Below, in pieces: positions 4,427 to 48,070 of a DNA stretch of 64,000 bases (the stretch's first letter is position 1; the number at the start of each line of letters is the position of its first letter). A program made the translations under genes and the position numbers. Source of the DNA: Deltaproteobacteria bacterium (lineage in GTDB: Bacteria; Desulfobacterota; Desulfobaccia; Desulfobaccales; 0-14-0-80-60-11). The DNA is taken from positions 2,408 through 66,407 of the forward strand of contig JAPLJC010000033.1 in assembly GCA_026388765.1 (NCBI GenBank), written 5' to 3'. Under the pieces are notes generated by a model. The model was not told the origin of the DNA and did no database searches. It saw only the letters and a list, made by a program, of their open reading frames with translations.

Positions 4427-6787
4427 TTAGTTGCTCACCACGTGCTTGAAAAAGCCCCGGTGCTCCAGCGGCAGAATGCCGTATTCGAACCGGAGCTTGT
4501 AGGCCAGTTTGTCCGAACTGAACATGTAGCCCTGCTGGGGCTGATCCTGGATGAAGATTTCCGGCTCTTCCCGGCCCTGCAGGAAACCGACCTCGATGGT
4601 GGGGATATCCTTGGGGTCGGCCACGGCCACCCAGTCGGTGGCGTCGTTCCAGAAGTCCAGCACCAGGTAGTCCAACCCGGTGTGCAGGGTGGGCAGGTCG
4701 GTGAGTTCGCCGCTGGCCGGCACCTTCAAGCCGGACTTGGTGAGCTCGAACATCATCTCTTCCAGCTCGTTCGGCCCCAGCAGATAACGGGGCACCAGGC
4801 CCAGGACGTCGTTGCCGTCGAAAGAGGTCTGGGAGCGCATGGCCACCCGGGTGGCGGTCAGGCCCGCGGCACTCATGGCGGTTGACCCCAGGTTGCCGTG
4901 GGCGTTATCGAACAGGGGCTTGTTGCCGCCCGCTTCTGCCGGTGTATAACCCATCACCGGGTTGGCCACGAAGATGCCGAAGAAATCCTTAAACAGGGTG
5001 CGGGCCGCGGCCCGGGCCAGGTTGATGGGGATGCGACGGATGGCCCCGACCTGATCATCGATGATCATGCGCCGGGAGAGGAACTCCAATCCGCCCAGGG
5101 TGTCCACTGCATACCCGATTTCCTGATCATTGGGGCTGGCGAGTTCCAGGTAATTGTCGTGTTGCCCCACATGCGGCAGGTCGCCGTAGCCGCCCACCCG
5201 CATGCGATAGTTCTGTCGGAAATCCTGCACCGGCACGATGTCGCTGGCGATCAGCCGCCAGGACTGGTACTGCGGCAGGTTGTATTCCGCCAGCAGCCGC
5301 CGGTACATCGAATCCCCGAAGATCTGCGCCCAGGAATCCGTCCCCAGGGCCTCTTTGAACCGGGTCAGCCCTTTGGCGTCTCCCAGGCGCCCGGTGACCA
5401 GGCGGTCGCCGGTGATCATCACGTAGGCTTCCCGGAAACTCTTAAACCGGGGCACCTTCAGGTCCTTGAGCTTCTGGTCGGTCTGGAAAAAGAAGCCGTC
5501 CAGACCGGCAATCACCTTGTCCTGCTCGGCGGCGCCGGCCGCGGCCGGGGCAAAACCCTTCAATCCCGCGGCCTCATGAAAACTGGCCAGATATTCGCGC
5601 TCATCCTTGATGCCCTGGTCCAGTTTGGCCTCGGTGAAGATCTTCCGGGCGGTGAAGTCCTTGCGCAGCTTCGTCTGGGTGATCTCCGGCAGGCCGCAGG
5701 CCACCAGCTTGGTGGAGAGCAGGTTGCGGCACTCGGCCTCCTGGAAGCGGGCCTCGGATTGCTCGATCCGCTCCAGCAGATCTTTCTGCTCCTTGGCCTT
5801 GGCCCGGTCCGCCTCCGGCACTTTGGTTTTCATGGCCTCCCGGAAGAGGGTCATAACCTCTTCCTCTTTGAGGTTCGCCTGGTCCTTGCCCTGGAGCAGC
5901 TCCGGCCGCTCCGCCTCGATCATTTTGATCATGCGTTCGATAAATTCCATCTCGTCCTTTCCTCCCGTTCCGGCGCCGTCCGCCTGGATCATTCTGATGA
6001 TCTGCCCCCCGGCCGAAGCATTCAGCACCGGGTCCACCGCGTCCACCTTGGTAATGGCCTCGGCGTAACGCACCATGCGGCCGTCCTGCCGCCGCAAACT
6101 GGCCCGGCCGTCGGCCACGATGGAAAACCCCAACAAGTCGGTCTTGCCCTGATTCCAGGCCTGCCGCATCTTGACGGCGAGCCAGGGGGCGTCCCCAGCC
6201 ACGTGAAAATGACTCACCAGGCGACCACCATCAGCCTCCTGAAATTGCACCTGGTCATGCCAGCCGACGATATTTTCGACCGAGGCGCCCTTTTCCTTCA
6301 GGTGATCGTCGTCCGAGCGCTTAAAGGCCCGGACCCCCTCGAACAGGGGCGCCGCCTCCCGGAGGACTTCCGGCGGATAGAAGGTGCCGCTCTTGGCCAG
6401 GCCCGCCGAAATCAGCGATACCAGCCACTCGTAGCCCTGATCATCCCCCGCGTCGATCATCCGGCCCGGCAGGAGCACAGGCTTGCCAGCCTGTGCCCCT
6501 TCCGCCTCTCTTAATTGCGCCGGCATCTCGGCCGTCTTCCCCATTTTCTGATAAGCGGCCCGCAACTTGGCCTTGACCCCGGCCAGCGCCGCCGCCGGCA
6601 GGTCCACTTTCTGCCCGCGGAAGCCGCCCTCGGATAAGGCCGCGGCCGCGTCCGCCAGGTGCGTCTCATCCGGCGAGCCGTCGGCCTGGAGATAAAGCAG
6701 CTTCCAGGACTCCGGGTCCTGCGGGTCGCCCACAAAAGCGAAACACTTGGCCGGTAGTTCCTGGTCGCCTACTTTTTTGGTCTTCAT
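4427..6787 (-). CDS. Prohead protease / scaffold / major capsid protein fusion (786 aa)
   Basis: The N-terminal third has the layout of a prohead serine protease (...RSDDDHLKEKG...GWHD...LLGFSIVADG...). The middle is a charged coiled-coil (EMEFIERMIKMIEAERPELL...KEQKDLLERIEQSEARFQEAE). The C-terminal ~350 aa look like an HK97-type capsid protein. Confidence 0.7.
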   Translation of the reverse strand: MKTKKVGDQELPAKCFAFVGDPQDPESWKLLYLQADGSPDETHLADAAAALSEGGFRGQKVDLPAAALAGVKAKLRAAYQKMGKTAEMPAQLREAEGAQAGKPVLLPGRMIDAGDDQGYEWLVSLISAGLAKSGTFYPPEVLREAAPLFEGVRAFKRSDDDHLKEKGASVENIVGWHDQVQFQEADGGRLVSHFHVAGDAPWLAVKMRQAWNQGKTDLLGFSIVADGRASLRRQDGRMVRYAEAITKVDAVDPVLNASAGGQIIRMIQADGAGTGGKDEMEFIERMIKMIEAERPELLQGKDQANLKEEEVMTLFREAMKTKVPEADRAKAKEQKDLLERIEQSEARFQEAECRNLLSTKLVACGLPEITQTKLRKDFTARKIFTEAKLDQGIKDEREYLASFHEAAGLKGFAPAAAGAAEQDKVIAGLDGFFFQTDQKLKDLKVPRFKSFREAYVMITGDRLVTGRLGDAKGLTRFKEALGTDSWAQIFGDSMYRRLLAEYNLPQYQSWRLIASDIVPVQDFRQNYRMRVGGYGDLPHVGQHDNYLELASPNDQEIGYAVDTLGGLEFLSRRMIIDDQVGAIRRIPINLARAAARTLFKDFFGIFVANPVMGYTPAEAGGNKPLFDNAHGNLGSTAMSAAGLTATRVAMRSQTSFDGNDVLGLVPRYLLGPNELEEMMFELTKSGLKVPASGELTDLPTLHTGLDYLVLDFWNDATDWVAVADPKDIPTIEVGFLQGREEPEIFIQDQPQQGYMFSSDKLAYKLRFEYGILPLEHRGFFKHVVSN

Positions 6788-9737: not shown

Positions 9738-11300
9738 CTAATGCAGCCTCCCAAAACTCTGCCGAAAGCCGTCCGGCCGGCCGCTGCGGTAGGTGCCAAA
9801 ATCCGGGTCGGCGCCAACACTGACAGGCACAAAACAATATTTTTGCAGCAGGCTCACTGCACCCTCCAGGGCATCAGGACCATCGTCATGAACGGTTTTA
9901 TTGAGGATGTAGACCAACTGCTCCCGGAGGCGGTCCTGGTCGCTGTGGCCGCGCTCAAAGGTGATTTTGCCGTGCTCCACCAGGTAGGCCAGGGTGTTGA
10001 TGATCCGGGCCTCTTTATTGGTGCGATGATCTACCGGCACCCAACTGATATAGCGCCCCACCTTCAGAGCGTAATTGTCGATGGCCTCTTTCAAAAAATC
10101 CTTGAGCATGTTTTCTTCGATGCCCATCGGACCGCCGTAATCATCACTAATCCGATAACAGGCATCGAGCATGCCCCCGGGCGAGGCATGGCGAATATAG
10201 GCATGCAGGCAGCGGTACATCCCCGCCTTGGGGTCCCAACCCACCGCCGCGATGGCCTTGAAATCGCTGGCCTCCGCCTGAGTGGCACTGGGATCGCAGA
10301 AGGACGCCACCATCAGGTCCTTCATGACAATTTCGGCGGCGGTATGAAATTTGAACCAAGTTTCGGGGAAAGGGCTGTCTTCGGCGACGCAGAGATTGCG
10401 CATCTCCCGGTTGAAATTAACCGTGGTCATCAACTTGCGCTTGGCCCGGAGACGCTCCAGGGGCCAGTGCGCCGGCCACAGGGCCCGCTCGTCCGGGGTG
10501 CCTTCATCCAGCCAGGAGTCATAAACCCGCGAGATATACAGCGGCGCGCCGTCCTCCTCGTCCTTCATGGCGATGAGCTGCGACAAGACGCTCTTGGGGT
10601 GGAAGAGGTTGCCCACCATAATAAAGGTGTAGTCTTCCCCCATCGAGCCCATAACCGAGCCTTGCAAGAAATCTATGGCCGCCTTAATCAACCTGGGGTT
10701 AAGGACATTCTAGTCATTTTCAAAGTCATCCACATCCACTTCATCGGGCCGGTATTGCCGGTTGCGCAGCCCCCGGATTTTATCCTTGTGGCCCCGGGCC
10801 AGGACCCAGATGCCGGTGTTGGTGATGAAGCTGCCCTTACCCCAGGCCGGCCCCAGCAATTTCCCGAAGTCGTGCTTCAGCCTCGGGTTGTCCTCCAGCT
10901 CCATGCCGATGGCCAGGGTAAAGGTGGTGGCCTGCTCATTGGTGTCGCTCAGGATGATAATGAAATGCTTCAAGGCGAAACAAATCTTAAAGAGCTTGTC
11001 CCCCAGGGTGAAGAAGGTGGATTTGCCGAATTCCCGGGGCACCGCCATCAACAGGACGGCATTTTGCAGATCTGCCAGGTCAGCCCATTCCTGATGGAAT
11101 TCTCCAAACGGTTTGGTGAAATAATGCGGCAGGTAGGTGCGCATGAAGTACAACTTGTCGTGCCGGGCCCGCTCGATCCGGGCCTGTTGTTTCTCCGGCG
11201 TGTCGTTTTCGAAGGGCGAGACTGAATCCTGAATCCAGCCCCGGAGCTCGGCGGCGAACTGGTCGAAGTGGTATTCGCTGATTTTAGGCCGCTTGCGCAT
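9738..11300 (-). pseudogene. terL: Terminase large subunit interrupted by a single in-frame TAG at 10710-10712
   Basis: The N-terminal ORF 10710-11300 has Walker A (PREFGKST) and Walker B (IIILSD). The C-terminal ORF 9738-10691 is the nuclease half. Both are in the same frame, and the reverse complement of 10681-10712 reads TAG AAT GTC CTT AAC CCC AGG TTG ATT AAG. Confidence 0.85.
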
Positions 11301-12694: not shown

Positions 12695-13016
12695 CAATCC
12701 CCCCCCCCACGTCGTAATCAGTTCCCTTCCCCGGAGGCACCCAAAGCCCCTGTTCTTTGATATTGGCCCGCACCTTCCGGAGCAATTTGATCTCCAGGTA
12801 GGCGTCCTCATCATTGATGTAATAGCGGTCGGGCCCGTCGCCGCCTTTGGTGCTTTCGCAAAAGGAATTGGTGTTGTAGTAGCCGCCCGTATGGGGATGC
12901 AGAATCTTCTGCGGCAACTGCCCGACGCACATCACCCCGTCGCCGTCGCTGTCGATGCAGAGGCAGTCCGGATCAGGACACCAGGGCGGCCGCATTAATT
13001 CGTTGGCTATCATCAT
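12687..13016 (-). CDS. Cys-rich hypothetical protein (109 aa)
   Basis: The start overlaps the endolysin stop (ATGATGA). It contains a G10 run (12699-12708) near its 3' end. Confidence 0.45.
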   Translation of the reverse strand: MMIANELMRPPWCPDPDCLCIDSDGDGVMCVGQLPQKILHPHTGGYYNTNSFCESTKGGDGPDRYYINDEDAYLEIKLLRKVRANIKEQGLWVPPGKGTDYDVGGGIDE

Positions 13017-13714
13017 AGCTTCACCCCCAGGGCCGCCAGGGTCAGGGGCCCGGTCTCGCCGTCGGCCACCAGGCCCTGGGCTTTTTGAAAGGCCTTGACC
13101 GCGGCGGCGGTCTCGGGGCCATAAACCCAATCGGTCCGGCCTTCTTCCAGGTAGCCCAGGTGATTCAAGGCGCACTGGATTTTAAAGACGACCTCGCCCC
13201 ACATCAGGGGGCTGGCCAGGTAATAAATGGTGGCCGCGGGCGTCCTCACGGGCAGGAGTGGCACCGGCTGGTACTCGATGCCCGGCACCAGAATTCCCAG
13301 GCTCCAGCGCCGGCCGTGGAGAGTGCTGGCGATCACGCCGTCGGCGTGCGAATGGGCCTCCACCGTGCCGCCTTTGCCATCCGACATGACGATATGGCCA
13401 TACTGGCCGTCCGCCGCCAGGCGCAGCACCGCGGCCCCGGGGATGGCCGCAGCCTGGTCCACCGAGATGATGCGGCCCTTGGTGCGGGCGTCCCGGGCCC
13501 AGTAGATCGTGCCGGCGTCGGCCTTGGCCGGGTCGGTGACGTCGCTATTGCAGCCGTAGAGGATTTGGGCGACTTGATAAACCGTCCAACTCAGGCCCTC
13601 GGCGCAATCCCAGGGACCGTGCCAGTTCCGGTCATTCTTGGGCACCACCACGAATTCATAGGCTTCGCCGATGCGGGTCCGCCACAGGGCCAACAGATCT
13701 TGTCCGGTTTTCAT
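13013..13714 (-). CDS. Endolysin: Cys/His hydrolase-like N-domain plus C-terminal peptidoglycan-binding domain
   Basis: The C-terminus VVFKIQCALNHLGYL...DWVYGPETAAAVKAFQKAQGLVADGETGPLT matches the PG_binding_1 pattern. The gene is flanked by spanin and holin candidates. Confidence 0.8.
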   Translation of the reverse strand: MKTGQDLLALWRTRIGEAYEFVVVPKNDRNWHGPWDCAEGLSWTVYQVAQILYGCNSDVTDPAKADAGTIYWARDARTKGRIISVDQAAAIPGAAVLRLAADGQYGHIVMSDGKGGTVEAHSHADGVIASTLHGRRWSLGILVPGIEYQPVPLLPVRTPAATIYYLASPLMWGEVVFKIQCALNHLGYLEEGRTDWVYGPETAAAVKAFQKAQGLVADGETGPLTLAALGVKL

Positions 13715-14788: not shown

Positions 14789-14925
14789 CTTTCTCCCGTG
14801 CAGAATGCCGTTTAAATTTTCCTTGAATCCATGCTTCCCATTTAAGCAAAAAATCAAGGCTTTGTGGGGGTTGAGTTCGCTTAAACTGACCGGGAGTTCG
14901 CTTAGATTTCAGCGCCGCCAAAAAA

Positions 14926-15105
14926 TCAGGGGACATCTTTTTTTTTAAAGGCCTCCACCGCCTCCCGGAAGACCCGGGTTTGGCGCTGGCCCGGATTTTC
15001 CGCCGTTAAGTCGCCCCGCTGGATTAACTTTTCTATCCAGCGCCGGCTAAACCCCAATTCCCGGGCCGCCACGTTCACCGGCATCGTGTCCCGCTTGCTC
15101 TCCAT
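14926..15105 (-). CDS. Small HTH DNA-binding protein (excisionase/AlpA-like)
   Basis: MESKRDTMPVNVAARELGFSRRWIEKLIQRGDL is HTH-like. The ATG at 15105 has a GGAG SD, whereas the track start at 15207 is a TTG. Confidence 0.6.
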   Translation of the reverse strand: MESKRDTMPVNVAARELGFSRRWIEKLIQRGDLTAENPGQRQTRVFREAVEAFKKKDVP

Positions 15106-15260
15106 CACCAACTCCAATCGAACCAGAGAACCGGCCAGACGCGGGTGTAATATTGCCGGTCTGAAAAAGCGCGGCCCACAGCGAGGACATAGTCCTGCAT
15201 TTTCCAAATCCCCAGGTTCGATGCCCTGATCTGACTGATAATCCAGATGTAATGGGTCAT
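15105..15260 (-). CDS. Trp-rich small ORF (51 aa), speculative
   Basis: Hand translation gives MTHYIWIISQIRASNLGIWKMQDYVLAVGRAFSDRQYYTRVWPVLWFDWSW. Its stop overlaps the next ATG (TGATG). Confidence 0.25.
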   Translation of the reverse strand: MTHYIWIISQIRASNLGIWKMQDYVLAVGRAFSDRQYYTRVWPVLWFDWSW

Positions 15261-15267
15261 AGGTCCC

Positions 15268-15659
15268 TCAAAAATAGCCCAGGTCCTCAGCCACTTTCCG
15301 GGTCATGGTCTTTCTGTCCCAAGGCCGTTTTTTCGGCTTTTTTAGGGCCGGCATTCCACTTTGCGGATCCTCGGAGGCCTCCCCCTGGGGGAGATCTCGC
15401 GTCGGCCGTCCCACTTCGCCCCGATCCGGCCCGGCGGGAACCGCCGCCATTGGACGGTCAGGCGCCCCCCCCCCCCCGCACTTTTCGACTCGAAGACCTC
15501 GCAAAGGCGGCTGAGGCCATCCAGCCACTTGCCCTGCACCTCCGGGGACCAGGCCGGGTCGAAGATGGGAAACTTGGCCAGCAATTGGTTGCGCCAGTCG
15601 TTGCCGCCTGGCGGCGGGGCCTTGACCGCTGCCTGATGGATGGCAATATTATTGGCCAC
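15268..15659 (-). pseudogene. Hypothetical phage gene split across two frames at a 13-nt homopolymer (C13 on plus, G13 on the coding strand)
   Basis: The N-terminal part is in the frame of ORF 15342-15659 (MANNIAIHQAAVK...FESKSAGGGG). The plausible C-terminus is in the frame of ORF 15268-15528 (...GGGGAPDRP...KKPKKRPWDRKTMTRKVAEDLGYF). The run lies at 15465-15477. Confidence 0.5.
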
Positions 15660-15695
15660 TCGTTTGGCACCCGAGGCCTTAGCTGATTCTTGAAG

Positions 15696-15727
15696 GCAAA
15701 TTTTGGGAATTATATACTTAACTCCCT
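15696..15727. repeat. Left arm of the ~32-bp inverted repeat flanking the AT-rich cassette
   Basis: GCAAATTTTGGGAATTATATACTTAACTCCCT compared with the reverse complement of 15994-16026, GCAAAATTTGGGGAATTATATACTTAACTCCCT: one mismatch and one indel. Confidence 0.85.
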
Positions 15728-15982
15728 TTTTAAAAATTCATCGAGACTGTTATATCCATCTTTCCATTCAACCGCTGAAAACCATTGGAATCCTCCCCTA
15801 TACATCCCTTGGCTTTCTGCCGTCATAAAAGAGCGCAGTTTATGGCGTATATTGGGGAAATTATGTTTTGTAAGTGCCATTTTACCTTTAGGAGTATTAA
15901 ATATTTCCTTTAGGGTCAAAGATGGTATATAACCGCGCCTCTTAATGTGTTTCAAAATCTCAACTTCATTATCTGTCAGCAT
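15710..15982 (-). CDS. AT-rich ORF (90 aa) inside the inverted-repeat cassette, unknown function
   Basis: ORF track entry. It is visibly AT-rich compared with its flanks. The N-terminus MLTDNEVEILKHIKRRG is vaguely HTH-like. Confidence 0.5.
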   Translation of the reverse strand: MLTDNEVEILKHIKRRGYIPSLTLKEIFNTPKGKMALTKHNFPNIRHKLRSFMTAESQGMYRGGFQWFSAVEWKDGYNSLDEFLKRELSI

Positions 15983-15991
15983 TTTTTGCCT

Positions 15992-16828
15992 TTAGGGAGT
16001 TAAGTATATAATTCCCCAAATTTTGCACCGGCCCAGATAATGCCTGACATTCCTGCCTCCCGGCTTGGATTGCACCTGCGGCTCTTCCGGATGGCGCGGG
16101 CACCGGGGCGCTTCCCGACTCAAATTTTCCGCCACACCTTCACCCTCCTCGGAGGCCGGGCCCGGCGCCGCCATGATCTCCTTGAGCCTTTCGGGCCTCA
16201 GGATTTTCCCGGCCTCTTTTTCCGATACTTGCACGGTCGACATGTCCTTTTTCTCCGCCGGTGCGGCCGGGACCGCAGGAATATTTTCAGGAATATTTTG
16301 AGCCCTTTTTGGTAAATCCGGCCCCACTTCGGCCTCATTTTTTTGGGGCGTGTTAATTTTTGCCACCTCATTTGTGGTCGCAAAAATTAACCCGGCCGCA
16401 CTTTCACCCCCTCCCCCTTGAGGGGGGAGGGCTGGGGTGGGGGTGGCGGCCGCTTTAGGCTTGACCATCGCGGCCCGGCGCTCGGCCTGCTCCCTGGCCA
16501 TCTCCAGCGGCCGATTGACGGCGCCGGCCAGGTTCAGGGGCCGGATCTTGACCTCAACGCCCTCCGGATGCCGCGCCTTGATCTCCCGGCCCTCCGGGCA
16601 GTCCCGGCAAAAGCTCGGGAAGCCGCCGGCCGCGGCCCGCTCCTGGTTGACCAGGCATTGGCGCTCGGAGATCCGGGTGGCCCCGGGGAACCGCGTGCAG
16701 TCGAACATCTGTGGCGCGGCCAGGGCCGCCACCAGCGCGGCCAGATCGACGCCGGGGTCAACCCTCGGCCCTTGATCCATCGCCGCCGCATAATGCGACC
16801 GCGGGCCCATGTCCCGCGCCTCAGTCAT
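15992..16828 (-). CDS. Hypothetical phage protein (278 aa), Cys-containing N-domain and low-complexity centre
   Basis: ORF track entry, part of the operon. Confidence 0.55.
   Translation of the reverse strand: MTEARDMGPRSHYAAAMDQGPRVDPGVDLAALVAALAAPQMFDCTRFPGATRISERQCLVNQERAAAGGFPSFCRDCPEGREIKARHPEGVEVKIRPLNLAGAVNRPLEMAREQAERRAAMVKPKAAATPTPALPPQGGGGESAAGLIFATTNEVAKINTPQKNEAEVGPDLPKRAQNIPENIPAVPAAPAEKKDMSTVQVSEKEAGKILRPERLKEIMAAPGPASEEGEGVAENLSREAPRCPRHPEEPQVQSKPGGRNVRHYLGRCKIWGIIYLTP
15994..16026. repeat. Right arm of the inverted repeat
   Basis: See the left arm. This arm also encodes the last residues and stop of ORF 15992-16828. Confidence 0.85.
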
Positions 16829-16849
16829 GGCAGTTCCGGGTACTCAGTC

Positions 16850-16987
16850 TCACGACTCCTCCCGCGGCCAACCCTCGTCACATTCGGGAGGTCTGGATCT
16901 TTTGGCCATCACCAGCAGGCAATAGATCACCAGCACGATGAAACCCAACACCGCCAGCGCCGCAATTTTGATGGCAAAAATAAACAT
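16850..16987 (-). CDS. Small membrane protein (45 aa), speculative
   Basis: Hand translation gives MFIFAIKIAALAVLGFIVLVIYCLLVMAKRSRPPECDEGWPREES. Confidence 0.3.
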   Translation of the reverse strand: MFIFAIKIAALAVLGFIVLVIYCLLVMAKRSRPPECDEGWPREES

Positions 16988-17032
16988 GGTTACCTACCTC
17001 CGTAGGGGCGACCTGTCGGGTCGCCCTGGCCG

Positions 17033-17221: not shown

Positions 17222-17716
17222 CTACTGTTCCTTGACCTCGTAGGCGTATGTCTCTTTCGTCTCGCGCCGGGTGCCGATGAGGGCCAGGGCCGCGTCGGGC
17301 CATTCGTTTTTGTCCTCCAGCACGTCCCAATCCACCGCGGCGGTGCGCCGGATGGCCTCCTCAAAGCCATATTTCATCAGGTTGGCCAGGACATCCACCT
17401 TGCGGGGTTTGACCACGTAGTCCTCTCGGGCGTAGAGCAGGGCGCCGTGCGGCAGGTCCAGGGAATAGGACTCCAGGATCACCTCTGGAAATAAGTCGGC
17501 CCGGTGCGCCTTCATGAAATCCTTCAATTCCTTATCGAGGTAAGCCACCCGGCGCTGTTGCCAGTCGATCTTGCCCTGGGAGGCCTGAAAGGCCCGCAGC
17601 TCTTCGGCCAACTTGGCCTGGAGGCGGTCCAACTCCACCTGCGCCTCCCGGATCGCCGCCAATTGCCGGTCCGCCTCGGCCTGGATCGGCGAGGCGAAGT
17701 ATTTTTTGGTGCTCAT
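17222..17716 (-). CDS. gam: Host-nuclease inhibitor Gam (Mu Gam family)
   Basis: 164 aa with an N-terminal coiled-coil (AEADRQLAAIREAQVELDRLQAKLAEEL). Size and architecture match Mu Gam, and it lies in the early region of a Mu-like phage. Confidence 0.7.
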   Translation of the reverse strand: MSTKKYFASPIQAEADRQLAAIREAQVELDRLQAKLAEELRAFQASQGKIDWQQRRVAYLDKELKDFMKAHRADLFPEVILESYSLDLPHGALLYAREDYVVKPRKVDVLANLMKYGFEEAIRRTAAVDWDVLEDKNEWPDAALALIGTRRETKETYAYEVKEQ

Positions 17717-22837: not shown

Positions 22838-23434
22838 TCATTCCTCCAGCCGGCTCACCGCCAGCCGCGCCTGGGCGATGGCCCGCAGGCTCTCGCCGTT
22901 TTTCCCCGGACACTCCTGGGCCACCCGGGCAAAGGCCCCGTCCAGCGAGGCCAGGGCTTCTTGCTGCCGCCGCCGGGCCCGCAGTTGCCGCAGGCGTTCG
23001 CCGTTGCTGTCCGCCGGCGGCTTCGGCCCGAGATCCTTGATCAGGCGATAGCGGCCCGGCTGGCCCTTTCCGGCCTCGTTCCGCACCAGACCCAGGCGCA
23101 GCATGGACTTGTACCAATCCCGGACCGTATGCGGGCTGGCCCCGGATTGCAGGCTCATCTCCTCCGCCGTCAGCACCAGGTGGATGCGCTGCAGATTCCA
23201 CATGATCTCCTTGAGCTCCGGCCGCTCCTCCCGCCCCAGCCGGCGCCAGCGCCCCGGCCCCAGGTGCTCCAGCTCGCCGTATTTGGCCAGGTCCTTGAGC
23301 GCCCCGCCGAGCCGGTTGCGGCGCTCGTCGGTGCACAATTCCAGGAGGTCGCCGGCCTGGCGGCTGGTGAAGGTCTGCCCCACCGGAAAGATGGCGATCA
23401 CCTGGCGCAACCGGTCGTTGAAGGAACCTTTCAT
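22838..23434 (-). CDS. Hypothetical early protein with winged-helix-like segments
   Basis: 198-aa ORF immediately downstream of the MuB-like gene. Confidence 0.55.
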   Translation of the reverse strand: MKGSFNDRLRQVIAIFPVGQTFTSRQAGDLLELCTDERRNRLGGALKDLAKYGELEHLGPGRWRRLGREERPELKEIMWNLQRIHLVLTAEEMSLQSGASPHTVRDWYKSMLRLGLVRNEAGKGQPGRYRLIKDLGPKPPADSNGERLRQLRARRRQQEALASLDGAFARVAQECPGKNGESLRAIAQARLAVSRLEE

Positions 23435-24225
23435 CTGCCGCCCGCCGGCTCCTCGTCCAGAATCAGCCGGGCCAGGTCCTCGGTGATCCGGCTGGTCTTT
23501 TTGGCATTGGCCAGGCTCACCAGTTTGACGGTGCGGTTGCGGATCATGCGCCAGTCGCCGCCATACGGGGCCTGGTTCAGGAGCAAGGCCGCGGCCGGCT
23601 CGATCTTGAGCTCAGCCGACTTCCAACCGTAATTCATGATGGCCTGGGCCTCCACCGCCTCGAACCGCACTCCGCCCAGACTCCGGGACCACAGCCGGGA
23701 GTTCGCCCGCATGACTTCATCCATCTTGAGTTCGCCGATGAGGATGAAGGCGGCGCCGGAGAGGTCGGCCAGGTCGCGCATCAGATCCAGGTGCTTAGGG
23801 ATGCGGTCGGCTTCATCAATGAAGACGACGCGCTGTTTGGCCGGCCGTTGCAGCAGATGTTCTATGGCCCAGTCGATGCAGCGGCTGCGGTTGCGCTGCG
23901 GGGTTTCCTGGCCCAATTCCCGGCAAAGCCGCATCAGGAAGGGCAAGGTGCTGTTCTTCCAGTCCTCCCGCACCCGGATATGCGGCAACCTATGGGCCGC
24001 GGCGTGGATGGCCGAGGTGTCGGTTTTGCCTTCGCCGGCCGGACCCCAAATATAGTCGAGACAACCCTTGCCCGCCATCTGGGCGATGGTCTCCATCCGG
24101 GCCAGGAACTCCTGCTCGTTGCGGGTCTCCACCCAGGCCGGGGCGAATTTTAGGCACTTCCAGGGCTCCGGGGCCTTGGCCTCGGGCCGGATCTGCGTCA
24201 CGGCGCTGCTTTTTTCTGTTGCCAT
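23431..24225 (-). CDS. MuB-like transposition ATPase (AAA+)
   Basis: Walker A (GPAGEGKT) and Walker B (VVFIDEAD). The gene lies directly downstream of the transposase. Confidence 0.8.
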   Translation of the reverse strand: MATEKSSAVTQIRPEAKAPEPWKCLKFAPAWVETRNEQEFLARMETIAQMAGKGCLDYIWGPAGEGKTDTSAIHAAAHRLPHIRVREDWKNSTLPFLMRLCRELGQETPQRNRSRCIDWAIEHLLQRPAKQRVVFIDEADRIPKHLDLMRDLADLSGAAFILIGELKMDEVMRANSRLWSRSLGGVRFEAVEAQAIMNYGWKSAELKIEPAAALLLNQAPYGGDWRMIRNRTVKLVSLANAKKTSRITEDLARLILDEEPAGGR

Positions 24226-24369
24226 TCAGACCTCCGTAAAGCCGTTACAAGTTTCCCCGGGCGCCATAGCCCTGTCGTAAAAAGGCGATTCATAGTTATT
24301 GCAAGTGCCAAACATTTCACACTCTTCTGCCTCTTGCCAATGCTCGCAGAATTCGCAGGTTTCCTTCAC
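24226..24369 (-). CDS. Small Cys-rich ORF (47 aa) between the transposase and the ATPase, speculative
   Basis: The GTG start overlaps the transposase stop (GTGA). It begins KETCEFCEHW...GTCNN...ETCNG and lies in a lower-GC patch. Confidence 0.3.
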   Translation of the reverse strand: MKETCEFCEHWQEAEECEMFGTCNNYESPFYDRAMAPGETCNGFTEV

Positions 24370-26708
24370 TCCCACACCTCCGTCGCCGCCTGCAGTTTCA
24401 CTGCCTCGAACCACGCCTCCAGGCGCCGGTAACTATCGCTCTTCTCGAACCAGTGCCTGGCCTGCCGCTGTTCCGGGTTGAGTTTGCCGCCCCGGGCCAG
24501 GGCCTTAATGATGGCCACGTATTCCTGCACCTCGGGCGACTCCTTCAAGTCCTCCAGGACCTGCTGCCGCTGCCGGGCGATGTTGGCCAGCTCCGCCGCT
24601 CCGTCCTCGATCTTCCGGTCCCGGGCCGCATCGGGCACCAGCCGCAGGGCGGCCCGGTCGTCATAGTCCTGAAGTTCCCGGTAAGCCCCGCCCTGGTAAT
24701 CCGCCGCCCCGAAACCGGCCACGGCCACCTTGGGCTTGGGCATAACCGCCAGTTGCCGGCCGTAATCCATCGGACCGCACAACCCCTCGGCCAGCTTGCG
24801 GTTGCCCTTGTGCGCCCGGACGATGCGCGCCTTGGCCTTGATATGCTCCTCCAGGTCCAGGCCGCCCCGCAGGCCGTTGTGCACCGTGCAGATGAAAGGC
24901 CCGGGCTGGCCGTTTTCCAGGCATTCCCAGATGGTGCCCCGGGTGACGTCGGCCAGCGACGGCTTGAAAATCACCCGCTTGCCCTGGAAATTCTGCACCC
25001 GCTCCATCCCCGCGGCGCTGTCCGCCATATAGGCGCCCAGCATCCCGCCCCAACTGAAGCCGGAGTTGTAGGTGCGCTCGAAGGCCGGCGCCATCAGGGT
25101 GTCCAGGTGCTCGGGGGAGGCGATGCGGGGCGCCCGCTTGGGCGAGTTGGCCTGGCGTTCCCACACCAGGCCGCTGCGGCCGAGCCGGCAGTCCTTGAAG
25201 CGGTGCGTCTCGGCCCGGTAGACCTTCTCCAGCCAGTCGGTGACCACCGCCTTCAATTCCGCCGCCGTGGCCCCGCAGGAGAGCTTCACCGGGTTCTTCT
25301 GGTGGTAAAAGACCTCCTGGAAGCGCTGAAATTCGTCGATGCGCTTGCGCTGCACCGGGTTGTGGCCCACGTACCAGGGCAGGGCCTCGAACAGCATCCG
25401 GGCCATCGAGCCGAAAAAGGTCTCGACGTGGGGTTTCTGCCAGGGGGCGTAGGCGTCGCAGTCCCGCTGGGCGATGCCCATCTGGGCGCAGGCCGTGCGG
25501 ATGTGCTGGCTCTTGAAGATCATGCCCCGGTCGCCGATGATCCACTCCGGTACACCCCAGGCCAGGAACCCCTGGCGAAACAACTTGGCCACCGTCAGTG
25601 AGGTGGCGTGCTTCTCCACTTCGATGATGGCGTCCCGGCTGAAGATGTCCACCGCCGCCAGGATCTCGTGGCGGCCGTCGGCCAGCATGACGTCGGCCGG
25701 GGTGGCGTCGATCTCCCAACGCTCGCCGAAATAGCCGGCCTGTTCGCCGGAGAGGCCGCCCTTGGGCTGAAATTGCGCCCGCCAGAACGACGGCAGGCAG
25801 ATGGCCGCCAGCTTCTCTTGTTCCTTATAGAGGAAGGACTCCAAAAACTTGGTGAAGTGGCCGTAGTGGGGGAGGTGCGTGTGCTGTGCGAACTCCGCCT
25901 TCAGCCGCCGGTAGATCAGGGCCTTGTTGCACTCCAGCCTGGTAGCACAGGCATCCCTGCCTGTGGAACTTTTAGGCCACAACTTCACCTGGCCCTTCCA
26001 GAACAGGGCGGTGATGTAGGCCTTCATGTCCGGGGTCATGGTCTGGACGCCCAGGCCCGGCTTCTGATAAGTCCCGTCCGCCTGGAGGCCGTAGCCCCGC
26101 CCCAGGGCGCACAGCCCCGGCGAGTTCTCCTGCTTCGCCGCCCACTTGTAGGACGTTTGCCAGGAGACCTTTTTAATATTCGCCAGGACCTCGGGGATCT
26201 CGTGGGGCTCGAACCCCAGGTCGGCTAATTCTTGATAAACCGCCGCGCTTGGCTCCGACCTTTGCTTTTTCCTGGCCCCTGACCACTGCCACCTTAGCAC
26301 CGCGTTCAGCCGGCCGTAAAATTCCTTCAAGGCCGCGGTCTTGCCTCCTGCCCGGCTCAGACAAAAATTCGCCCCTGCCCGCAACACCGCCGTCCGGGCC
26401 AGGGCTACCTTCATTTCCTTTGGCGTCAGCCTCATGATTTTGGGGGCCTCTTTGACCCGGGCCGCCATTGCCCCTTCCTGCACCATCTGCCAGCCCGTCG
26501 CCGTATCCCGGCGCACCTCCCAGGCCGTGATAGCCTGGCGCACATCCTCAGGCAGGGAGATATAGAGGTAGAGTTTCTTGATGCCGCCCCGGCCTCTACC
26601 CTTTTCGGTACGAAATAACCATTTTTCAGCAAAGGCCCGCACTTTCACCGCCTGGGGCGTTATTCCCATAGCCTCTGAAATCTCGGCCACTGTATAAAGT
26701 TCCTTCAT
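24366..26708 (-). CDS. MuA-like DDE transposase
   Basis: 780 aa with an N-terminal HTH (YTVAEISEAMGITPQAVKVR). The rve-type core shows WEIDATPADV (D), IIGDRGMIFKS (D) and QKPHVETFF (E). Confidence 0.9.
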   Translation of the reverse strand: MKELYTVAEISEAMGITPQAVKVRAFAEKWLFRTEKGRGRGGIKKLYLYISLPEDVRQAITAWEVRRDTATGWQMVQEGAMAARVKEAPKIMRLTPKEMKVALARTAVLRAGANFCLSRAGGKTAALKEFYGRLNAVLRWQWSGARKKQRSEPSAAVYQELADLGFEPHEIPEVLANIKKVSWQTSYKWAAKQENSPGLCALGRGYGLQADGTYQKPGLGVQTMTPDMKAYITALFWKGQVKLWPKSSTGRDACATRLECNKALIYRRLKAEFAQHTHLPHYGHFTKFLESFLYKEQEKLAAICLPSFWRAQFQPKGGLSGEQAGYFGERWEIDATPADVMLADGRHEILAAVDIFSRDAIIEVEKHATSLTVAKLFRQGFLAWGVPEWIIGDRGMIFKSQHIRTACAQMGIAQRDCDAYAPWQKPHVETFFGSMARMLFEALPWYVGHNPVQRKRIDEFQRFQEVFYHQKNPVKLSCGATAAELKAVVTDWLEKVYRAETHRFKDCRLGRSGLVWERQANSPKRAPRIASPEHLDTLMAPAFERTYNSGFSWGGMLGAYMADSAAGMERVQNFQGKRVIFKPSLADVTRGTIWECLENGQPGPFICTVHNGLRGGLDLEEHIKAKARIVRAHKGNRKLAEGLCGPMDYGRQLAVMPKPKVAVAGFGAADYQGGAYRELQDYDDRAALRLVPDAARDRKIEDGAAELANIARQRQQVLEDLKESPEVQEYVAIIKALARGGKLNPEQRQARHWFEKSDSYRRLEAWFEAVKLQAATEVWE

Positions 26709-27916: not shown

Positions 27917-28012
27917 GGGACCACCTCTTAATTATTTGACTGTTAAAACCATGTATAAATCAATAAATTGATTGTTGCAAGCAAAAAATTGCGTTATCCA
28001 TCAATTTTTTAA

Positions 28013-28121
28013 TTGCTAAGTCGTTTTTTTGCCTAAACCTTTATTAATAATTATATCACTTAGTTAAGGCACTTTTTTAGGTTGCTAAGTCATTTGCTAA
28101 GTCGAGCCTGCGACTTAGCAA
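28013..28121. promoter_or_regulatory. Operator array: TTGCTAAGTC x3 direct (28013-22, 28082-91, 28094-103) plus an inverted copy GACTTAGCAA (28112-21)
   Basis: Exact 10-mers read in the AT-rich divergent region. The last direct copy and the inverted copy form a palindrome with an 8-bp spacer. Confidence 0.6.
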
Positions 28122-28135
28122 CCAAAGTTGGCCCC

Positions 28136-28543
28136 ATGAACCTCCAGGAACGCCTAAAATTGGTCATGCAAGATTCCGGTTTGACAATTCCTGATTTCGC
28201 TAAAAAATTGAGTGTCGCAGGAAGTACTCTTGTCAACTACCGCGATGGCCGGACCTCTCCCACCTTTGATCTGCTCATGAAGATTTGTACGGAATTTTCG
28301 ATAAATCCTGACTGGTTATTGCTGGGCAAGGGAGGTATACACCCCGGCGAGGCCGATGAAGCCGGCCGGCTGGCCCATATCGACCTGGCAGTGCAGCTGG
28401 TGGAGGAGGCGGTTAACGAAACCGGGGTACAGATCACCCCGCTTCAGAAGATCGCCCTGGTGCAGCTCATCCGAGAGGAGCTAAAAACCCGCACCATCGA
28501 CATCCTCAAGGTTATAAAAGGTGGAGGGACTAAAGGTGGCTAA
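28136..28543 (+). CDS. Phage repressor (XRE-family HTH)
   Basis: MNLQERLKLVMQDSGLTIPDFAKKLSVAGSTLVNYRDGRTSP...DWLLLGKGG is typical of a phage c/CI-like N-domain. The ATG at 28136 is preferred because the track's TTG start at 28082 lies on the operators. Confidence 0.75.
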   Translation: MNLQERLKLVMQDSGLTIPDFAKKLSVAGSTLVNYRDGRTSPTFDLLMKICTEFSINPDWLLLGKGGIHPGEADEAGRLAHIDLAVQLVEEAVNETGVQITPLQKIALVQLIREELKTRTIDILKVIKGGGTKGG

Positions 28544-29213
28544 CGACGACCTAAAGGACAAAATCAAGAAGGGTTTGGAAGATTTAGAACGCTCTCGCAG
28601 TAATGTTGTGAAATTTCCACCCAAGACAGTCAGAAAGAACCGAAAGAAAAAGGAACCAACGATTTATCAATCTATTGAAGGCAATAACAACACGCAATTT
28701 GTCGGCAATCCTGTTTTTAGTATGCACCCCCCAAAGGTTACCGTTGCTCCGCCCCCGAATAGTATCGGTGCTGATCCCTTGCTTAAACAATCCATCATGG
28801 AACGATTTAATAAGTTGGGAGAATTATATAATAATCGCTTCCCTGGCAAGGGTTTTGCTATTTTGCATGGCAATTTTAAAAAAGATTTCGGGATAACAAA
28901 TCAAAACTATACCATTTATAATCAGTGGCCCCTCGGCATGGCTCCTTATGTCATTAATTATCTTGATGATCTGTATGTATATACTGTTTCTGGCAGATTT
29001 GCCCAGCGGATGATTAATAAGGATTACCTGCAAACCAAGAATTATTGTAAAAAGAGAGAAAAGGAGTTGACGAAAGAGTTAAATCTAAATATAAATGGTC
29101 CAGAGATGATCCAGTGGCTTTATCAGCGTTTTATGGTATCTTCCTATCAGCAGCTTGACCGACTTCAACATAATCTATTTGTTACATATTTGGAAGATAT
29201 GGTTCTCAAATGA
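28521..29213 (+). CDS. AT-rich accessory protein of unknown function (about 225-230 aa), translationally coupled to the repressor
   Basis: ORF track entry. The alternative GTG at 28536 overlaps the repressor stop (28541-28543). It is visibly AT-rich and I recognise no motif. Confidence 0.6.
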   Translation: MEGLKVANDDLKDKIKKGLEDLERSRSNVVKFPPKTVRKNRKKKEPTIYQSIEGNNNTQFVGNPVFSMHPPKVTVAPPPNSIGADPLLKQSIMERFNKLGELYNNRFPGKGFAILHGNFKKDFGITNQNYTIYNQWPLGMAPYVINYLDDLYVYTVSGRFAQRMINKDYLQTKNYCKKREKELTKELNLNINGPEMIQWLYQRFMVSSYQQLDRLQHNLFVTYLEDMVLK

Positions 29214-29270
29214 AGTAATACACAGATTGGCCTCCGGCCGACCTAATTCATAAACAGGAGGATTAATTAA

Positions 29271-29648
29271 ATGCTTATATCTCTTAGAAGGTTAGTTGTT
29301 TTGGCAATTGTGCTTTTATTTGCCTTGGTTGCCATTTCTCAAGCCGCCGAAACCTCCATGAAAGAGATGTACCTGATCGTAAGTAAGTACGCCAAAGCAG
29401 ACATTAATCGGGTTGAGTTCGAAAAGGCTATGGGAAATGCTGAAGCCGAATTTGATTTATTTAAAGATTCTAAGATTGCCAAGAAAAACCCTGAGTTCAC
29501 TGAGCACATAGCTAAGGCTATGGAGGCTATTAAGAGCGCTGGTTTTTTTACTTTTGTGGCCCCTTCTCCTAAAGGCAGTCAACAACGGGAAGCTGCCTGG
29601 AAAGCTACCAAAAGAGAGCTTGAGGCTGCCAAACAATACTTAAAATAG
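29271..29648 (+). CDS. AT-rich secreted/periplasmic helical protein (125 aa), unknown function
   Basis: The N-terminus MLISLRRLVVLAIVLLFALVAISQAAE looks like a signal peptide. An SD (AGGAGGA) lies upstream. Confidence 0.65.
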   Translation: MLISLRRLVVLAIVLLFALVAISQAAETSMKEMYLIVSKYAKADINRVEFEKAMGNAEAEFDLFKDSKIAKKNPEFTEHIAKAMEAIKSAGFFTFVAPSPKGSQQREAAWKATKRELEAAKQYLK

Positions 29649-29800
29649 ATGGAATAACTATTAATGGGGCGGCCTGCCTGGCCAGCTCGCCGCCGGCAAA
29701 TTCTCGTTGCCGCCGCTGGGACGTTGTTCCCTACGCCGTCCTCCCCGATGGTGGCCACGGCCCCTGGTGCCCCAATTGTAAGCTCCCGATCCAAAAATAA

Positions 29801-29818
29801 AGGCGGCCCCAGCCGCCT
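29801..29818 (+). terminator. Possible intrinsic terminator after the accessory module
   Basis: AGGCGG-ccccag-CCGCCT followed by AACCTTTTCTCATTTT. Confidence 0.35.
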
Positions 29819-29823
29819 AACCT

Positions 29824-29964
29824 TTTCTCATTTTGCATGCGCACCCAACTTTTTTTAACCCTTTTTCTCATTTCCCCATTTTTTTCTCCTCTCCCCTTAA
29901 CTCCCTAAAAGTCCCCCAAAAGTTCCCTTCTCGTCTCATCAACCCCGCGCCTTTCCTTTCTCAT
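29824..29964 (-). repeat. G-poor end region with TTTCTCAT motifs (29824-31, 29864-71, 29957-64; variant GTCTCAT near 29933): candidate transposase-binding sites
   Basis: The motifs were read directly. Measured from a putative CA terminus at 29969-29970, the spacing is about 7, 100 and 140 nt, which resembles the Mu L1/L2/L3 layout. Confidence 0.35.
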
Positions 29965-29969
29965 ATCCC

Positions 29970-30296
29970 ATGCTCCCCCCCACTCCCCCAGCAAAGCCCA
30001 CAATTCATCCTGGCTCACGGCGTTGTGACCCGGGCCATGACGTAGTGATGGTCGGCGCCGGTATCCTGGAGTTGGCCGGCGCCTATCATATCCTGCAGGC
30101 ACGCCGGGGCCTCGCTCCCCTGGCTGAGATCACGGTTGACCGGCGAGGTGAACAGGTCCCGGTAGGGCGCGGCGCTCCTGGCCGTGGTGCCCCGGCCTGC
30201 GGCGGCTTCAAGATGTTGGGGACCAACGCCGAGGCCGGCGGTCCCGATTGCCTGCGGCTGTTCCTGGAGATGAAGAGCGTGGCCGAGCATTGGTAA
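29970..30296 (+). pseudogene. Short FAD/NAD(P)-binding oxidoreductase-like remnant
   Basis: Contains the Rossmann fingerprint HDVVMVGAGILELAGAYHILQARRG, but the ORF stops after about 85 further codons and no credible start lies close upstream of the motif. Confidence 0.3.
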
Positions 30297-31247: not shown

Positions 31248-33602
31248 TTAGTTGGCCAACGCCCTGCCCTTTAACCGGCTTTCGGCCATCACTACCTGGT
31301 CGCGGCCTGCCTCTTTGGCCTGATACAGCGCAGTATCCGCCGCCTGGATAACCTCCTTGCCAGAGGAACCGTGATCCGGAAAGACGGCCACCCCGGCGGA
31401 AATCGTGATGGCTTTTAGTGACGAACTCTGTAAATAGAGCCGCTTGACCCCCTCATTCAGCGCCTTGGCTCGGTCCAGGGCGACATCCATGGGAGCCCCG
31501 GGCATAATGAGCAGAAATTCCTCTCCCCCAAAGCGGCAGGCAATATCTTCCCGGCGAACCGTTTCCTGGATCATTTGGCTCAAGGCGCACAAGAGCTCAT
31601 CTCCCGCATTATGGCCATAGGTGTCGTTGTATTCCTTGAAATGGTCCAGGTCCAGCATGATTACCCCCAGGGGGCTCCCCGAGCGCTTGCCTCGGCTCAA
31701 TTCACGTTCCAGGGTCTCCTCCAGATAGCGGCGATTAAAGAGACCCGTGAGGCCATCCCGGATGGCCTGGTTGCGCAAAGTCTCACGGAGTTTCAGGTTG
31801 GCCAGGGCCATGGCCATCGCCTCAGCCACGGTGCCGGCAAACTGGCCGGTGGCTTTAATCTGATCCGCTGACTCCGGAGTGGCTCGGCGCAAATGAAAAA
31901 TACCCATAACCTCGCCCTGGGCCATCAAGGGTACACAGAGATAGCTGCCGGGGACATCGGCGCCGATATGACGGCAGTTCATGCTGGTGGCCGAATCATG
32001 AACCAGATACGCCCGGCTTCGCCTTAAGGACCAACACTCATCGTGGTCGAACACCATCTCCAGAGATGAGGTATCGCCCCAAATGGAGGTCATCTCGAAG
32101 AGATTCTTGGAGTTATTGAGGATATAGAGCGCCCCGCTATAGTCCGGGAAAAATTGGGGCACAAAGTTGGCGATGGCGCTATAGGTTTCTCCGGAGGATT
32201 GACAGGCCTGGAAGACATCGCTCATTTTCTGGAGCAGGGTCATTTGGCGGTTGCGCCGGTCTGATTCGCTCACCAGCATCTGGAGTTGTTCATTGGCCGC
32301 CTGCAATTTCTTCAGGTTTTCTTTTTGCTCAGTTAAATCTCTCGCGATCGTGACGCTACCCATATTTTTGTTGTTTTCGTCACGCAACACCTTAACGGAA
32401 AGACTGCATGGAAAAGTGCTGCCATTTTTCTTCTTCATTTCAATTTCGTAATGCTTTACACAACCATCCTGGCGCAATTGTATTAACATGTTAGCCAGTG
32501 CATCTTTATTCGCATAAAGGTCAAACGCGGGTTTCCCCTGCATCTCACCAAAACTATAGCCATAGATTTCTTCGCATGACTTGTTCCATCTGTTAACAAT
32601 TCCATGCCGGTCGACGATGCCGATAGCTTCGGTGGAGTTATCGAAGATGTTCTGCATATACTGGTTGGCCTGTTTGAGCTCCGCTTCCGCCTTCTTAAGC
32701 CAGGTGATGTCCCGGAAAGTGGCCACCACCCCAACTATCTGGCCATCTTCCTTGATCGGGCGAGTCAAATAGGCCACCGGCAGGGGATCACCCTTCTTGG
32801 TCCAGAAGACCTCGTCAATGATAAAACGTTCCTGGCCGTCTTTGAGGGTGGCTCGAAGAAGGCACTCATCTTGGGGATAAGGGGTGCCATCGGCCCTCTT
32901 GTGATGGATCAACTCATGTAAGTTTTGGCCCATAATATCCCGGGCCTGGTAGCCGAGCATTTTGAGGACGGCAGGATTGACGAAAACGACTTCGCCCGCC
33001 TGGTCCAGCTCCAACAAGCCCTCGCCCAAAGAGTTCAAGACCGTCTCGTGATGCTGCTGCATTTTCTTTATGGTTTCTTGAAATTCATGCGCCTCGGTAA
33101 TGTCGGAATAGATCCCGGTAACATATTCCACGGTGCCGTTAGCATCGCAGATTATCTGTCCTCTCTCCCGAATCCAAAGAAGCTCCCCTGATTTTATTTT
33201 TATACGATACTCCCGGACATAGGATTTATTGGTCTTTAAGGCCTGCCGGAATATCTCTTTGGCTTTTTCCAAATCCTCGGGCACAATAAGCTCGTTCCAT
33301 TTCATCCGCCGGGAGTTAAAATCCTCGATGGAATAACCGGTGGACTTCTCGAACTTCTCGTCAAATAAGTCGACACTCCAATCAGGGTAGCCCTTAAAGA
33401 CCACGGAGGGGATGGTTTTCACCAAGAGGCGGAAGTTATTCTCACTTTCCCGGAGGGACGCCACCGTTTTATTGAACCGCCGGGTAGTCCTTAGCAGGTA
33501 GAAGGATCCCAACAGGATGAAGGCGGATCCGAAAATGACGAAAATAAAATACATCTGTTGAATAAAGAGTATGCCCACCTGATTAAGGACTTTCATCGTC
33601 AT
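31248..33602 (-). CDS. Membrane-anchored PAS/PAC (x3)-GAF-GGDEF diguanylate cyclase
   Basis: N-terminal TM. Repeated PAS-like segments. The C-terminus reads GLTGLFNRRYL...DLDHFKEYNDTYGHNAGDELL...RFGGEEFLLIMPG. Confidence 0.9.
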   Translation of the reverse strand: MTMKVLNQVGILFIQQMYFIFVIFGSAFILLGSFYLLRTTRRFNKTVASLRESENNFRLLVKTIPSVVFKGYPDWSVDLFDEKFEKSTGYSIEDFNSRRMKWNELIVPEDLEKAKEIFRQALKTNKSYVREYRIKIKSGELLWIRERGQIICDANGTVEYVTGIYSDITEAHEFQETIKKMQQHHETVLNSLGEGLLELDQAGEVVFVNPAVLKMLGYQARDIMGQNLHELIHHKRADGTPYPQDECLLRATLKDGQERFIIDEVFWTKKGDPLPVAYLTRPIKEDGQIVGVVATFRDITWLKKAEAELKQANQYMQNIFDNSTEAIGIVDRHGIVNRWNKSCEEIYGYSFGEMQGKPAFDLYANKDALANMLIQLRQDGCVKHYEIEMKKKNGSTFPCSLSVKVLRDENNKNMGSVTIARDLTEQKENLKKLQAANEQLQMLVSESDRRNRQMTLLQKMSDVFQACQSSGETYSAIANFVPQFFPDYSGALYILNNSKNLFEMTSIWGDTSSLEMVFDHDECWSLRRSRAYLVHDSATSMNCRHIGADVPGSYLCVPLMAQGEVMGIFHLRRATPESADQIKATGQFAGTVAEAMAMALANLKLRETLRNQAIRDGLTGLFNRRYLEETLERELSRGKRSGSPLGVIMLDLDHFKEYNDTYGHNAGDELLCALSQMIQETVRREDIACRFGGEEFLLIMPGAPMDVALDRAKALNEGVKRLYLQSSSLKAITISAGVAVFPDHGSSGKEVIQAADTALYQAKEAGRDQVVMAESRLKGRALAN

Positions 33603-48043: not shown

Positions 48044-48058
48044 ATTGCTCCTTTCTCG

Positions 48059-48070
48059 AGCTGATCAGCT
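48059..48070. promoter_or_regulatory. Perfect 12-bp palindrome AGCTGATCAGCT just upstream of the nitroreductase SD (possible operator)
   Basis: Read directly. The function is speculative. Confidence 0.2.

Follow-up and report, generated by a model that had tools for sequence, protein, structure and literature searches.

Within the stretch of DNA analysed here (64 kb, hereafter the window), the longest homopolymer is a C13 on the plus strand, that is, a G13 in the minus-strand (mRNA) sense. The runners-up, again read in minus sense, are G10 (12699-12708) and A9 (14938-14946); all other runs reach at most 8. Why does a protein-coding sequence change frame at this tract? The first-pass annotation offered three answers: a phase-variable (slipped-strand) switch, a site of transcriptional or ribosomal slippage that yields two products, or an error in the homopolymer count. 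A slipped-strand change emerges as the best of the three, yet a working switch is not favoured in the window copy, as the gene is cut upstream. We assign a probability of about 0.6 to the reading that the tract carries a fixed -1 frameshift, produced by replication slippage at a slippage-prone site in a pseudogene of a decaying prophage.

Both of the open reading frames that the first-pass annotation named are present, ORF 15342-15659 of 105 aa and ORF 15268-15528 of 86 aa, and the tract (...GAGTCGAAAAGTGC-G13-CGCCTGACCG... on the minus strand) does split the coding sequence between them. The 105-aa frame is annotated as NTY36_01380 in the source Deltaproteobacteria MAG. With the actual G13, the sensible frame shifts to -1 across the tract, and reading on from upstream gives 40 Arg-rich codons before a TAA. 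In silico, G11 or G14 fuses the two ORFs into a single protein of 130 aa, as had been claimed, and G12 or G15 leads to a stop at a TGA. Codon usage, modelled on the long genes of the window, is clearly that of coding sequence upstream of the tract (+0.36 log-likelihood per codon and a GC3 of 0.80 in the previously read frame); downstream, the -1 frame scores highest of the three, yet resembles coding sequence only weakly (-0.04 per codon). Taken by itself, composition gives the run no significance, because a G13 arises in 12 of 100 dinucleotide-preserving shuffles. The argument against chance is instead that the run is orthologous in relatives.

The tract lies in a Mu-like transposable prophage, which occupies the minus strand from about 28 kb down to the start of the window. 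A DDE transposase, a MuB-like ATPase and Gam are followed by a regulator, lysis and head genes, the arrangement of a Mu-like early operon and what lies beyond it, and terminase and portal genes are also present. The large terminase gene is split by an in-frame TAG into ORF 10710-11300 (196 aa) and ORF 9738-10691 (317 aa), and the phrog_38 terminase profile aligns straight across the interruption. Because TAG is the normal stop of four other genes of the prophage, this codon is not recoded. The terminase stop, a cassette insertion described below and the frameshift amount to three inactivating lesions, and together they indicate that the prophage is decaying.

Table 1. Features of the prophage and of the interrupted gene, as positions in the window.
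Feature	Position	Strand	Remark
Transposase (phrog_310, DDE)	24366-26708	-	
MuB-like ATPase (phrog_296 DNA transposition protein; Pfam AAA_22)	23431-24225	-	
Gam (Phage_Mu_Gam)	17222-17716	-	
N-terminal 271 codons of the interrupted gene	16017-16828	-	ATG 16826-16828; Cys-rich modules
8-bp target-site duplication, left-hand copy in gene sense	16017-16024	.	
IS1595-family transposase-less cassette, 312 bp (MITE- or MIC-like)	15705-16016	.	inverted ends and target duplication
Passenger ORF of the cassette, 90 aa	15710-15982	-	low GC; sole ORF; without Pfam or PHROG match
8-bp target-site duplication, right-hand copy in gene sense	15697-15704	.	CAAATTTT on the plus strand
Segment with ...CLQESAKASGAKRVANN... 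and the conserved DWR..FDPAWSPEVQ..W domain	15478-15696	-	frame read by the first-pass annotation
G13 homopolymer (mRNA sense)	15465-15477	-	encodes the Gly run at the linker start, before the C-terminal tail; orthologous to G14, G11, G9, G8 and G6 in relatives
C-terminal tail of the ancestral protein (APDRP...ALKKPKKRPWDRKTMTRKVAEDLGYF)	15268-15464	-	now -1 relative to the upstream part; stop TGA 15268-15270
TGA that would stop the protein right behind the Gly run at G12 or G15	15458-15460	-	
TAA closing the out-of-frame reading from G13	15342-15344	-	after 40 Arg-rich codons
Mor/C-like HTH protein (late-activator-like), 59 aa	14926-15105	-	
Endolysin	13013-13714	-	
In-frame TAG in the large terminase gene (9738-11300)	10710-10712	-	independent sign of a defective prophage

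Comparison with homologues shows that the two-frame "gene" is only the 3'-terminal third of an early prophage gene of about 413 codons, which runs from 16828 to 15268 on the minus strand. In an exhaustive HMMER search, P0002, P0003 and P0004 (328-428 aa) align with the fused 130-aa protein across the tract, from residue 11-20 to residue 128-129. The alignment falls at their C-termini, and their N-termini match the 278-aa ORF 15992-16828 of the window. The two halves do, then, belong together, as had been proposed, and these relatives carry both in one frame. Orthologues in which two independent genes are the norm, the outcome that had been named as the alternative, were not found; the relatives read straight through.

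What parts the 5' and 3' portions of the gene in the window is a low-GC cassette of 312 bp flanked by an 8-bp target duplication. As assembled, the ORF from 16828 continues for 7 codons within the end of the cassette, with its stop at 15992. Excising 15705-16016 together with one 8-bp duplicate, and setting the tract to G14, gives a 413-aa protein that aligns over its full length with the relatives. The excision joins the frames exactly (...GRC KIC LQE SAK ASG AKR VAN N...); the reconstructed junction reads GRCKICLQESAKASGAKRVANN, where P0005 has GRCQICMKEAGAVSAAKRKANN, and the DNA junction expected in cassette-free molecules is GGTGCAAAATTTGCCTTCAAG. Reconstruction and full-length alignment together imply that the GTG at 15657-15659, formerly taken for the gene start, is an internal Val codon of the roughly 413-aa protein; the N-terminal 271 residues are encoded on the far side of the cassette (Table 1).

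All of the relatives for which DNA is available lie in Mu-like contexts, with the homologue at most a few genes downstream of Gam and, in the closest relative (L001), immediately after it. The family consists of early proteins of 330-430 aa from Mu-like transposable phages, encoded a short way downstream of Gam. Neither the fused 130-aa nor the reconstructed 413-aa protein has a match in Pfam or PHROGs, a word-indexed search with the fused protein matched only the window's own 105-aa ORF, and nothing was found by a viral-contig scan with a single protein, a genome-contig scan with the family alignment or tblastn against GenBank phages. The HI_1489_N proteins, whose genes stand behind the homologues in relatives, have no counterpart in the window. 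The structure predicted for the reconstructed protein is of low quality (mean pLDDT 52.8) and served solely to note the low confidence of residues 343-394, which have the Gly run at their start and are apparently disordered between the helical domain and a short terminal helix. Going by this model, whole-codon changes of length should be tolerated in the linker.

The relatives show what the tract looks like elsewhere. The orthologous site has the flanks GTGCG-Gn-CG.CTGA. L001 shares the flanks of the window and has G14 in frame (SAGGGGVPDR), which also supports the earlier claim about the fusing length; L006, at 27% protein identity to the window by tblastn, has G11 in frame (AGAGGGAADD), and L004 has G8 in frame. 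The tract of L002 is a G9, in frame with different flanks, and that of L003 a G6, out of frame. Lengths across the diverged relatives are therefore 14, 11, 9, 8 and 6, with an in-frame series of 8, 11 and 14 (3n+2) from which the window, at G13, is one G short. Because GGG makes up only 21% of the Gly codons in the prophage, versus 64% for GGC, the pure G runs in these diverged relatives are not a product of codon usage.

These patterns are most readily explained as follows. A conserved, slippage-prone poly-G encodes a short Gly run that opens the linker joining a conserved helical domain to a basic C-terminal tail, and in intact relatives its length is 3n+2. In the window prophage the tract has one G fewer than the G14 of the closest relative, which takes the frame away from the conserved tail and into the nonsense codons that end at the TAA. 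The same copy of the gene is also cut by the cassette, with the terminase amber codon alongside, and would be without function here. We infer both the origin of the frameshift by replication slippage and the absence of function in the window copy. A tract this long must mutate often, which means that G14 is to be expected in some cells or transcripts, and a residual ON state of the 3' fragment is possible. For the window itself the consequence carries little weight: the two-frame gene is to be annotated as a pseudogene fragment.

Could the tract simply have been miscounted, so that a true G14 puts the 3' part of the gene in frame? Between the same flanks, the closest relative does have G14, and long poly-G runs are hard for short-read chemistry. 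Homopolymers also disturb Logan assemblies, as is seen in contig L025, which ends exactly at the G10 at 12699-12708. Counter to this, five Logan contigs encode the 105-aa product without change, for which the tract has to be G13 and no other length, and, with the MAG, G13 is found in six of six assemblies; these counts are at the level of assemblies that are probably Illumina-based and may share source material. Two of the Logan contigs, retrieved from different runs (ERR15302170 and SRR20698650), match the window at 100% identity along 4097 and 3739 bases, with the G13, the G10, the A9 and both cassette ends among them. Logan also contains a G14 contig of L001 (run ERR12076137), and no G12 or G14 form of the gene of the window phage was found in a protein database of 5.8 billion clusters. 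The identity of G13 in six assemblies, the G14 contig and the absence of such forms from that database make a random assembly error unlikely, while systematic under-counting of a 14-G run by short reads may occur. Overall, we consider a miscount an unlikely explanation, and the suggestion of a homopolymer error is weakened.

Alternatively, the tract may be an active contingency (phase-variation) locus, at which slippage toggles between a tailed and a tail-less or garbled protein and G13 is the current OFF state. The anatomy fits: the tract lies inside the ancestral ORF, and unit changes switch the frame from tail (G11 or G14) to nonsense (G13) to stop (G12 or G15). Arguing for this case is the retention of 8-14 uninterrupted G at the corresponding position in relatives down to 27% protein identity, even though GGG is a minor codon, together with (GCAA)6 within that linker in L005 and L007 and, in L003, a -1 shift out of frame just upstream of its G6. 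Poly-G switches are also known in other phages (Sorensen 2021, as cited in PMC12633550). Counter to this, the gene of the window is interrupted upstream, so that a switch would have nothing to control, and at the level of assemblies the lineage shows a single length, G13 in six of six. The in-frame lengths of 8, 11 and 14 could be explained equally well by whole-codon drift of a Gly linker that the structure model depicts as disordered. For the window copy we therefore regard an active switch as improbable and retain the fixed frameshift in a pseudogene.

The intact members of the family are a separate matter. Pure G runs are conserved, and L005 carries (GCAA)6 in the corresponding linker, which hints that mutability has been selected for in the family; "pseudogene lesion" would then be an incomplete description. 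A possible though unlikely reading is that the linker repeat (poly-G of 8-14 or (GCAA)n) of the intact Mu-like family members is a true contingency locus, of which the window would have a frozen OFF allele. If so, the repeat would be retained for its slippage, through which a temperate transposable phage could form subpopulations that differ in whether an early protein has its C-terminal tail.

Several observations touch on repeats in these phages. In L005 (about 4925-4950) and L007 (about 1455-1480) the linker is without a G run and holds the tetranucleotide repeat in frame (ASKQASKQ). L003 (MAG GCA_023381945.1, about 4615-4645) carries the conserved tail in the -1 frame, with the break at a G4A6 (CTTCGGGGAAAAAATCGG) about 12 nt upstream of the G6; its tail matches the in-frame tail of P0007 (E = 1e-4), and the deposited 381-aa protein ends in out-of-frame sequence. 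Runs of at least six G outnumber those of C by 32 to 3 on the gene-sense strand, where composition predicts about 3 to 1, in a count that covered window 1-28000 (reverse complement), L001, L002, L004, L005 and L006. L001 has a further G12 (637-648) within an uncalled 72-aa ORF (609-827). In the Mor/C-like HTH regulator, KKK close to the C-terminal end is encoded by the A9 of the window, a further potential slippage site.

A third explanation is programmed recoding, in which RNA polymerase slippage or -1 ribosomal slippage on G GGG GGG yields a short and a full-length product. The shift needed is indeed -1 (or one extra G in the RNA), two of the seven family members need it, and G GGG GGG fits the formal X XXY YYZ heptamer in the zero frame. 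Moreover, a 13-nt homopolymer is longer than the RNA-DNA hybrid, so that realignment keeps full pairing. All-G heptamers are not known to be efficient -1 shift sites. A run of 13 exceeds the roughly 9 nt or more associated with transcriptional slippage, but the out-of-frame state is not conserved: L001, L002, L004, L005 and L006 are each in one frame and show no requirement for a frameshift, and the break in L003 is at a different spot. Folding of 15360-15560 gave no signal of RNA structure (z = +1.4, with 183 of 200 shuffles at least as stable), and the gene is already broken upstream by the cassette. Slippage that yields two products, the second of the options first proposed, is thus very unlikely.

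Least probable of all is that two independent genes meet here, the upstream one ending near the tract and a small second gene starting from the ATG at 15448-15450. With G12, the upstream frame would stop 7 nt before that ATG, and the G10 of the window is indeed found where one gene ends, directly ahead of the start codon that follows. This reading is contradicted by the orthologue alignments, which cross the tract; in addition, L001 lacks the ATG, and the G run ends 14 nt before it, far for a ribosome-binding site. We give it almost no credence. The G10 itself codes for the final Gly residues of its gene (..DYDVGGGIDE*), with 4 nt separating it from the following ATG, and probably acts there as a ribosome-binding site.

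How does the fixed frameshift, and the tract family to which it belongs, compare with known systems? Bacterial contingency loci in Neisseria, Haemophilus and Campylobacter are coding simple-sequence repeats that undergo reversible frameshifts by polymerase slippage. Contingency loci have recently been claimed for T2 and T4 as well (preprint PMC12633550, 2025). The tract shares with both the nature of a coding simple-sequence repeat, and the GCAA repeat of the relatives L005 and L007 is of the class used by Haemophilus. This likeness is one of sequence anatomy alone; reversibility, switching rate and phenotype belong to the known systems. The closest parallel in phages is provided by the hypermutable poly-G tracts in receptor-binding genes of Campylobacter Fletchervirus (Sorensen et al. 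2021 Cell Rep, as cited in PMC12633550), and the same source notes poly-G tracts in BPP-1 and PB1-like phages. In both cases a G run lies within a phage gene, of 7-11 nt there and 8-14 nt here, and shifts of plus or minus one change the 3' frame. The Fletchervirus tracts, however, are in receptor-binding or structural genes of lytic phages, with length subpopulations demonstrated experimentally according to that citation. The tract of the window, in contrast, is in an early gene of a temperate Mu-like phage, and its copy is a pseudogene seen in assemblies alone. Descriptions of such loci have so far come mainly from lytic Campylobacter phages, where they lie in receptor-binding genes, and lately from T-even phages. 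The persistence of an orthologous poly-G and of a tetranucleotide repeat in relatives therefore marks a candidate repeat-mediated switch in an early gene of temperate phages.

Programmed transcriptional slippage offers a weaker parallel. In Thermus dnaX, IS elements and Shigella mxiE (review PMC5009743), a long homopolymer likewise stands at the junction of two frames that jointly make a full-length protein. The bacterial slippage sites known so far are runs of A or T, and in the known cases the out-of-frame state is kept in orthologues, whereas the run here is of G and most orthologues are in frame.

The cassette that interrupts the gene ends in perfect 23-bp inverted repeats (15705-15727 and 15994-16016; GGGAATTATATACTTAACTCCCT), with 0 matches expected by chance. 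It has no transposase of its own, its sole ORF being the passenger. The exact 23-nt end occurs in 12 MAGs (L012-L023) from many phyla, and paired ends with perfect 8-bp duplications flank four other elements, of 523, 907, 1429 and 1878 bp. The 1878-bp element, in L012, encodes a 304-aa protein with DDE_Tnp_IS1595 (1.4e-44) and Zn_ribbon_IS1595 domains. These shared ends and duplications show that the cassette belongs to a real transposon family. Transposase-less derivatives of the IS1595 family (MITEs and mobile insertion cassettes) include MIC231 of Bacillus cereus. The element resembles them in its terminal inverted repeats, its 8-bp duplication, a passenger ORF without a transposase and an end-sharing relative that encodes DDE_Tnp_IS1595; it differs in the very small size of the insert and, unusually, in having ends that do not vary between MAGs of many phyla. 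An Rfam search over 14800-17000 found no intron, ribozyme or other RNA family, which argues against the insert being a self-splicing element.

The MAGs with the 23-nt end include Acidobacteriota, Alphaproteobacteria, Chloroflexota, two Patescibacteria, Spirochaetota and Thermodesulfobacteriota, among others. The ends flank unrelated cargo of 0.3-1.9 kb, with a transposase in only one copy (L012). A copy of the cassette with one mismatch per end, and with an ORF 87% identical to the passenger, is present in L026 (749-1061; also in L027 and L028), where it sits in a different phage-like contig beside an N6/N4 methylase and NinG. In L029 (2750-3037), another phage-like contig, an 82%-identical ORF stands without cassette ends. 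From these copies, the passenger looks like a captured phage gene now moving between phages; tblastn of its ORF against plasmids found none.

The remaining observations concern the gene and its surroundings. The motif DWR..LL.KFP.FDP(A/S)W.PEVQ.KW also ends many proteins of roughly 240 aa with a DUF5343 N-terminal part (P0010, P0014, P0016 and about 50 others from the HMMER search), and the DWR..PEVQ region appears to be a portable C-terminal module. Relative to its homologues, the protein of the window is longer by some 65 aa, inserted in frame (residues about 123-190; window about 16260-16460), and this added stretch contains a hairpin-like CCCTCCCCC..GGGGGAGGG; the two retrieved Logan contigs begin at 16435-16438, adjoining this stretch.

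In the 49 codons of the tail, substitutions are spread equally over the codon positions (0.19, 0.25 and 0.22) in four relatives, a small sample in which the difference is not significant; the upstream parts of the gene show the usual excess at third positions. The tail (15268-15417; about 15375-15405) also holds three overlapping palindromes, GAGATCTC, CTCCCCCAGGGGGAG and GGAGGCCTCC, and it is possible that an overlapping DNA or RNA element is embedded there, upstream of a 51-aa ORF and the HTH gene. The out-of-frame extension was considered as conserved coding sequence and rejected: it is open in relatives only as GC-rich DNA predicts, without third-position excess. A promoter and terminator scan gave nothing useful on the gene strand.

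Just beyond the tail, the first-pass annotation had placed the stop at 15268 within 5 nt of a next ATG at 15260; both stop and ATG exist, and the gap is 7 nt. The 51-aa ORF (15105-15260) that starts there is preceded by GAGGG, and its end shares one base with the beginning of the HTH gene (TGATG), an arrangement that suggests a translationally coupled mini-operon of the two genes downstream of the broken one. On the scale of the whole window, low-GC islands occur at 28000-30000, 32000-34000 and 48000-49000, with values of 0.44-0.50 versus about 0.60 elsewhere.
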